64,000 bases of DNA from Escherichia coli (GTDB taxonomy: Bacteria; Pseudomonadota; Gammaproteobacteria; Enterobacterales; Enterobacteriaceae): assembly GCF_003790525.1 (NCBI RefSeq), contig NZ_CP033635.1. One strand, 5' to 3'. The translations under genes were made by a program, and so were the position numbers. The notes under the pieces were generated by a model that saw only the letters and a program-made list of their open reading frames with translations, had not been told where the DNA came from and searched no databases. Shown here piece by piece: positions 51,402 to 51,977 of this stretch. How positions within the stretch are numbered: the first letter of the stretch is position 1; each line of letters opens with the position of its first letter.

Positions 51402-51977
51402 TCACCATCCAACCCTGTACGCCAGAATGGTTTCACTGTCACTCAGTTCTGCTATTGCCTTTTTCATCTCCCTTTGCCTTATATGTATTTCAAGGCCTTT
51501 CCTGAACATCGCTTTACCAGCAGCATCACTCAGGGATATCAGTTCATCTGCCGTCATCGGTACATCATTATTCTCTGCGTCCGTCCAGAAAAATCCTTCC
51601 GGCAACACACCGCCTCTGGCCGCTGATGCCGACATTCCAAGACGTGTCATGGTTTCCTTTCCATAATCCCATTTCCGTCCTCTGTGCTCAAAAACATACC
51701 CTGACGCCTCCATCGCATCACGCCAGGCATTTATCTCCGCGTTTTTCATCCTGCGTGCTTCTTCCACAGCCATATCATCATTTGCCCGGTACTCACCCAC
51801 CGGCCCTGCATCACCTCTTATGCAGGCTTCAAATATTTCACGACCGTAAGACTCAGGATCATCCGCACTTGCTGTAAATACACATTCTGTTTCCGCGTCT
51901 GAAAACTTCACTATACAGTTTATGGTCGTATGACCCCTGTCAGCCCACACTGGTGACGTGATTTTATCGACCTTCAT
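51402..51977 (-). CDS. Hypothetical protein in the tail-fiber-assembly (tfa) position
   Basis: 191-aa ORF immediately downstream of stf; lacks the Tfa C-terminal motif I can recall. Confidence 0.5.
   Translation of the reverse strand: MKVDKITSPVWADRGHTTINCIVKFSDAETECVFTASADDPESYGREIFEACIRGDAGPVGEYRANDDMAVEEARRMKNAEINAWRDAMEASGYVFEHRGRKWDYGKETMTRLGMSASAARGGVLPEGFFWTDAENNDVPMTADELISLSDAAGKAMFRKGLEIHIRQREMKKAIAELSDSETILAYRVGW

Follow-up and report, generated by a model that had tools for sequence, protein, structure and literature searches.

A DUF4376 protein encoded directly after a collagen-like side tail fibre gene in an Escherichia coli prophage is probably a fibre assembly chaperone

What is encoded by the small gene that directly follows the side tail fibre gene (stf) of an Escherichia coli prophage, at the position where a tail fibre assembly gene (tfa) is expected? 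An earlier note on this DNA had described a 191-aa gene at 51402-51977, called its product unknown and unlike lambda Tfa or Mu gpU, and left two readings, a distinct fibre chaperone or an unrelated cargo gene. We followed up both readings in the window (the whole analysed stretch of 64,000 nucleotides, from contig NZ_CP033635.1) and in homologous loci of other phages and prophages.

The 191-aa ORF is a genuine gene, and a chance ORF is excluded. It is complete at 51402..51977 on the minus strand, with its ATG at 51977 and its stop codon at 51402-51404, and the ORF list, Pfam, PHROG, RefSeq and AF2 all contribute to its description as a DUF4376 protein. The coordinates and length given in the earlier note are exact, the strand having been left unstated, and the gene does lie directly after stf, in the tfa position, across a 14-nt gap on the minus strand. 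This spacer (51978..51991, minus strand, read from the sequence), which separates the stf stop codon TGA (51994-51992) from the ATG, is CAGGGGAGAAATGA and contains a Shine-Dalgarno sequence, GGGGAG, at 51989-51984, 6 nt before the ATG. The 14-nt distance from the stf stop and the gene's own ribosome-binding site suggest that the orf191 product is made together with Stf, the two genes probably being co-produced.

The protein matches PHROG 1141 end to end (E = 1e-62), is identical to RefSeq WP_000861763.1 (‘DUF4376 domain-containing protein’) and is found in identical form on 462 contigs. Homologues fall into 679 representative clusters at E ≤ 1e-3 in an exhaustive HMMER search, and of 5426 complete E. 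coli genomes, 21 carry the window allele at a coverage of at least 80%. An identical gene is intact in the prophage tail module of E. coli GF60 (NZ_CP172185.1); this module is shredded by IS21, IS66, IS256 and ISL3, its stf survives as pseudogene fragments, and it adjoins the aerobactin (iuc) locus. ‘Unknown’ was too strong a word for a protein with a Pfam family, an identical RefSeq entry, an ORF-191 counterpart in GenBank since 2000 and fibre-chaperone experiments on other DUF4376 proteins.

The minus-strand order at this prophage end is a J-like host-specificity gene (53721..57626; ORF list and Pfam), stf, the 191-aa ORF, about 400 nt of non-coding DNA, a YadA-anchor gene, an HTH gene, and then yecD-like and aspS, which are chromosomal genes beyond the prophage. 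The YadA-anchor gene (49386..51002, minus strand; Pfam) encodes a 538-aa trimeric autotransporter of the Eib (immunoglobulin-binding) type, and its homologues go by YadA-like or immunoglobulin-binding protein in RefSeq. It contains 5.6 tandem copies of a 99-bp (33-aa) unit, 98% near-perfect, at 49808-50364, and the repeat number appears to vary between strains. The extreme prophage end holds a gene for a sigma-70 region-4-like HTH protein of 151 aa (48869..49324, minus strand), which might be a regulator of the eib-like gene, and a DinI-like gene of 82 aa on the plus strand (48238-48486). Pfam gave no Caudo_TAP match in the three main ORFs between the prophage stf end and yecD, so that none of these three is a rival candidate for the assembly gene.

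The succession of J, a stf-like fibre gene, orf-191, eib (a YadA-like adhesin gene) and then a small ORF is common to the window and the P-Eib prophages. ORF-191A, C, D and E of the latter (P-EibA, P-EibC, P-EibD and P-EibE, ECOR-9) are also 191 aa long and are 57-60% identical over 91-100% of the query; their GenBank records (AF151091 and AF151674-6) date from 2000 and assign no function, and a literature search yielded nothing of use for ORF-191. The two arrangements differ in the small ORF after eib, which is ORF-156A in P-EibA and the 151-aa HTH gene in the window, and in that the P-Eib order includes (lom), while no lom lies between J and stf in the window. The ORF-191 allele of the window is itself divergent from those of P-Eib and is paired with a divergent Stf tip.

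This location, at a variable prophage end and with an Eib-type, YadA-like gene as neighbour, an arrangement also seen in the P-Eib prophages, invites the reading that the 191-aa gene is cargo, a ‘moron’ travelling with the eib-like adhesin gene and serving the lysogen in some function unrelated to the fibre; the identical copy surviving in the IS-riddled GF60 remnant fits such a view. Against this, the coupling to stf is tight, whereas about 400 nt and a hairpin lie between the gene and eib, and a homologue follows the fibre gene in phages that have no eib (phiP27, the PhiR12 phages, Andromeda, V22 and Baseplate_J contigs). The hairpin is GC-rich, has a 9-bp stem and was located by a terminator scan and in the sequence at 51363..51394 (plus strand), 7 nt past the stop codon of the 191-aa gene. 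Its T-run is on the plus strand, so that it is terminator-like only for transcription in the opposite direction, from the eib side, and not for the stf-orf191 late operon. We also observed a relic of about 230 bp that corresponds to ~51254-51481 and takes in the 3'-terminal 80 nt of the DUF4376 gene and the downstream hairpin region. Its 80-nt gene part is found at 97.5-98.8% identity in about 350 of the 5426 complete E. coli genomes, where no annotated features lie beneath the matches; in strain Sanji, the sole context inspected, the ~230-bp relic abuts a truncated transposase pseudogene near sul2/aph resistance genes.

Judged by its profile match, the 191-aa protein is a clear member of the DUF4376 family (Pfam PF14301; 73.7 bits against a cutoff of 25, E = 2e-20, residues 73-180), and 89 of 98 aligned relatives match the same family in Pfam. 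The arrangement of a DUF4376 gene after a fibre gene recurs in the window, in 78 IMG/VR and phage loci and in Alteromonas phage V22. With gp27 of V22, which carries DUF4376 at residues 87-187 of its 195 residues (Pfam), the C-terminal domain of the window protein aligns in hhalign at 97.1% (E = 5e-11, 113 columns); BLASTP alone gave no significant match between the two proteins, and their pairwise identity is about 20%. The V22 fibre gp26 is functional only when gp27 is coexpressed, and gp27 does not co-elute with the mature gp26 fibre (PMC7289586). Similarly, in Campylobacter CJIE1 a DUF4376 protein encoded downstream of the H-fibre is required for a functional fibre (PMC7882524), and A5 gp9, a related DUF4376 protein, has been discussed as a transient ‘cap’ (PMC10579305). 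Homologues are labelled ‘tail fiber assembly protein’ in the records of PhiR5_1, PhiR5_2, PhiR12_2_star and Vibrio H188. A reading as a defence gene was rejected, PADLOC returning 0 families at E ≤ 0.1.

The structure of the protein alone, a check proposed in the earlier note, is modelled with confidence by AF2 (pLDDT 95.7 for the whole protein, from the 98-sequence alignment). The model has an N-terminal domain of three beta-strands and one helix (residues 1-65, or 1-60 in AF2; 51783..51977, minus strand), a lower-confidence linker (residues 61-70) and a C-terminal DUF4376 domain (residues 71-191; 51405..51767, minus strand; Pfam 73-180 and AF2), in which a helix, a hairpin, a second helix, a second hairpin and a long helix follow each other. 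Searched with the family profile, the PDB sequences yielded 0 hits at E ≤ 10. In fold searches, no PDB structure was significantly similar to the model, and TfaMu (5YVQ), 4UW8 and 3GW6 were absent among the best 50-60 fold matches listed. With no significant PDB neighbour in these fold searches, the proposed geometry of a trimeric ‘cap’ is taken from published models of distant homologues (PMC10579305).

Membership in the Tfa chaperone family, which would make this an ordinary tail fibre assembly protein, was looked for with Pfam, BLASTP and hhalign and not found, in agreement with the impression in the earlier note that the sequence is unlike lambda Tfa or Mu gpU. Pfam gave no match to Caudo_TAP (PF02413) in the 191-aa protein at E ≤ 1, while the controls Mu U, Mu U' and lambda Tfa matched Caudo_TAP at E = 1e-37 to 1e-43 and had no DUF4376. 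BLASTP against Mu U and lambda Tfa stayed at chance level (E = 0.02-0.04 over 44 residues, in non-equivalent regions), hhalign of the 98-sequence DUF4376-family alignment against a Caudo_TAP alignment returned a probability of about 1%, and a fold likeness to the TfaMu N-domain (5YVQ) was not found among the best matches listed. A published statement that Mu gene U contains DUF4376 (PMC7882524), probably in error, was not reproduced in our Pfam scan, in which Mu U and U' matched Caudo_TAP only. It could still be argued that the 191-aa protein is a true Caudo_TAP Tfa so diverged that its similarity has decayed: the gene has the same position, the product a similar size (191 vs 175-194 aa) and the same two-module logic, and recombinants between its modules and those of Tfa proteins exist (see below). 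We regard this as very unlikely, the profile and fold tests being negative and the C-domain architecture different.

To relate the chaperone candidates to their fibres, we extracted the DUF4376 gene and the upstream fibre gene for each of 80 IMG/VR loci with homologues and for the window, P-EibA, PhiR12_5 and phiP27. Fibre tips were classed by terminal motif; global identity and BLAST single-linkage had merged unrelated classes. The C-domains of 65 unique homologues form a single BLAST class (minimum identity 31%, median 68%), while the N-terminal parts of the DUF4376 homologues fall into three unrelated classes. The ORF-191-type N-domain (36 loci, 32 unique) has no detected similarity to classical Tfa and follows fibres with the tip [LI]F.R.., in a knob of the form ...PG(T/S)W...GLFQRIx; in these loci the gap between stf and orf191 ranges from -1 to 20 nt (median 15.5). 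Proteins of 219-225 aa have an N-terminus 34-42% identical to residues 1-112 of Mu gpU (E = 1e-19 to 2e-24) and go with the tips YRPLQ, TYGFLQVH and WEAxGY. In proteins of 248-253 aa, the N-terminus is 45-61% identical to residues 1-117 of lambda Tfa (E = 8e-37 to 6e-50) and the tip is NTVKNIAFNYIVRLA, which is the lambda Stf C-terminus; these lambda-Tfa-like DUF4376 proteins thus sit after fibres ending NIAFNYIVRLA, like lambda Stf, and share PF28596 with lambda Tfa (precomputed Pfam).

The [LI]F.R.. fibre ending lies upstream of the ORF-191-type N-domain in 36/36 loci and upstream of other N-domains in 0/42. Identity between N-domains is correlated with identity between fibre tips (Spearman 0.62 overall, 0.70 within the ORF-191 type), the corresponding values for the C-domain being 0.19 and 0.33. 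The coding sequences of N-domain and tip are only about 14 nt apart, so that part of this co-variation may reflect physical linkage and not functional coupling. Linkage is probably not the whole explanation, since the same pairing recurs in unrelated phage types with three C-modules. It is found in lambdoid prophages (the window and P-EibA), the baseplate-bearing phiP27, a Baseplate_J metagenomic contig and the Pseudomonas autographivirus Andromeda. That the N-domain type follows the fibre tip is a further point against the cargo reading. With the tight stf coupling, the homologues that occur without eib and this tracking of the tip, an unrelated cargo function is unsupported and seems to us hardly credible; of the two readings in the earlier note, it is the distinct fibre chaperone that finds support.

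The C-terminal modules attached to the ORF-191-type N-domain differ. Two chimeras, P0213 (134 aa) and P0263 (137 aa), combine it with a Caudo_TAP C-part (E ~1e-13, above the Pfam cutoff), and both overlap the stop codon of a fibre ending ...PAG(S/T)W.CMG...TL(W/F)QRIA. In Andromeda, gp40 (117 aa) joins an ORF-191-type N-domain to a short tail, helical by sequence reading; its start lies 8 nt beyond gp39, the fibre gene, whose product has the C-terminus ...PEGTWRCLG...VWIRVY. The Andromeda record (NC_031014, 489-2818) labels gp39 (655 aa) ‘tail fiber assembly’ and gp40 ‘tail fiber protein’, two labels that are probably reversed. phiP27 has two fibre cassettes, with a Caudo_TAP gene after one and an ORF-191-type DUF4376 gene after the other. 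Together, these comparisons show what appears to be a two-module combinatorial system, in which the N-domain goes with the tip and the C-module (DUF4376, Caudo_TAP helices or a short tail) is exchangeable. We lean, if only slightly, towards the more general proposal that DUF4376 and the Caudo_TAP C-helical domain are non-homologous interchangeable modules on tip-specific N-domains, and that the ORF-191-type N-domain and the ...PGTW...LFQRIx tip form an undescribed cognate pair.

The presumed client is encoded by stf (51992..53662, minus strand; 556 aa; Pfam), whose product matches phage_tail_N (PF08400, E = 2e-39) and Collagen (E = 4e-41). Its two collagen-like Gly-X-Y blocks have a 45-bp tandem periodicity (52267-52414 and 52705-53197) and between them lie about 90 aa without collagen character (roughly residues 323-410). 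The C-terminal tip or knob, delimited by motif comparison, comprises about 85 aa (residues ~472-556; 51995..52249, minus strand) and ends ...LGTWMLCTT...GLFQRIR. Nothing in Pfam matches this ~85-aa knob. The motifs in it (...VGSY.., G..(I/L)R, PGTW and GLFQRIx) are common to fibres of lambdoid prophages, phiP27 and a Pseudomonas autographivirus, and the knob looks like an undescribed small tip-domain family. We propose the tip as the predicted docking site for the chaperone N-domain. A fused single-chain AF2 construct (90 aa of Stf tip, a 30-aa GS linker and the chaperone) modelled the tip as all-beta with moderate confidence (pLDDT 50-83) and gave no confident complex (pTM 0.49), from a shallow paired alignment of 18 rows and for a fibre that is naturally trimeric.

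We therefore return to the question of what the gene does. According to a passage of PMC9608196 citing North et al. 2019, the variable N-domain of Tfa and of Pam3 gp25 binds the distal fibre, and the conserved C-domain trimerises and starts assembly. The functional logic of a Tfa is seen here too: the N-domain varies with the fibre, the C-domain is conserved and the gene comes after that of the fibre. This supports the statement that the 191-aa protein ‘works like a Tfa’, and not membership in the Caudo_TAP family; its modular logic matches that of Tfa proteins and Pam3 gp25, which argues for a chaperone of this Stf. We accordingly favour, at a probability of roughly three in four, the reading that the orf191 product is a dedicated two-module assembly chaperone of the upstream collagen-like Stf. 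Its N-domain of about 65 residues would recognise the small Stf knob ending ...PGTW...GLFQRIx, and the DUF4376 C-domain would supply a generic activity, probably self-association into a trimer, a step modelled by analogy on the helical domains of Tfa and Pam3 gp25 and on the modelled V22 and A5 chaperones. Such a chaperone trimer would hold three fibre C-termini in register, and fibre trimerisation would begin at the distal tip. Tip binding, trimerisation and a need in fibre maturation are all properties that we infer for the 191-aa protein.

A chaperone that binds the tip might also stay there. The 191-aa protein could be a structural tip adhesin or permanent cap that remains bound and contributes to receptor recognition, staying in place as T2/T6 gp38 or Mu Tfa do; Mu Tfa and lambda Tfa are both reported to remain on mature fibres (PMC9608196). 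PHROG 1141, 11571 and 1807 are labelled ‘tail fiber protein’, which makes a structural role possible, homologues carry a tail fibre protein annotation in several phage records, and for A5 and V22 a transient ‘cap’ has been suggested. V22 gp27, the only biochemically dissected homologue, points the other way in its failure to co-elute with the mature fibre. The DUF4376 domain, which makes up most of the 191-aa protein, is moreover conserved (median 68%), the opposite of what is expected of a diversifying receptor-binding surface, and Pfam found no family besides DUF4376 at E ≤ 1. We consider a permanent adhesin or cap unlikely.

For annotation, the gene after stf is best described as a likely DUF4376-type fibre chaperone, and neither as cargo nor as a classical Tfa. 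The family, the gene order and the exact sequence were already in databases, and DUF4376 proteins of other phages had been published as chaperones; the additions made here are modest and consist of the exchange between DUF4376 and Caudo_TAP modules and the link between the ORF-191 N-domain and the LFQRIx knob, an incremental step within the modular Tfa concept rather than a new kind of system. If the reading as interchangeable modules is true, the N-domain alone would predict the chaperone for each fibre tip, providing a rule for retargeting phages and tailocins. In fibre engineering, transplanting a ...LFQRIx tip would need a matching ORF-191-type N-domain, while the C-module appears exchangeable, a point of relevance to the host-range engineering of lambdoid phages and tailocins.

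Among known systems, the 191-aa protein resembles lambda Tfa and Mu gpU/U' in gene position, in size and in the combination of a variable fibre-binding N-domain with a conserved C-domain. Unlike lambda Tfa and Mu gpU, it has no detectable sequence or profile similarity to them in either domain, and the predicted architecture of its C-domain differs from that of a classical Tfa. Intramolecular chaperone domains are a covalent C-terminal part of the fibre and are removed autoproteolytically. The likeness to those of T5 pb1 (4UW8) and the K1F endosialidase (3GW6) lies in the suggested function, that of a trimeric template or cap at the C-terminus for the folding of the fibre; unlike them, the 191-aa protein is encoded by an ORF of its own, which has a start codon and a ribosome-binding site. 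A resemblance to intramolecular chaperone domains has been reported for the Alteromonas DUF4376 chaperones (PMC10579305). From V22 gp27 the window protein differs in the low identity of the C-domain (~20%), in an unrelated N-terminal part and in its client fibre, and the chaperone role of gp27 was tested experimentally, while that of the window protein is deduced from sequence. What it shares with V22 gp27 and A5 gp9 is the overall plan, a small protein encoded right after the fibre gene with DUF4376 at its C-terminus (PMC7289586, PMC10579305).
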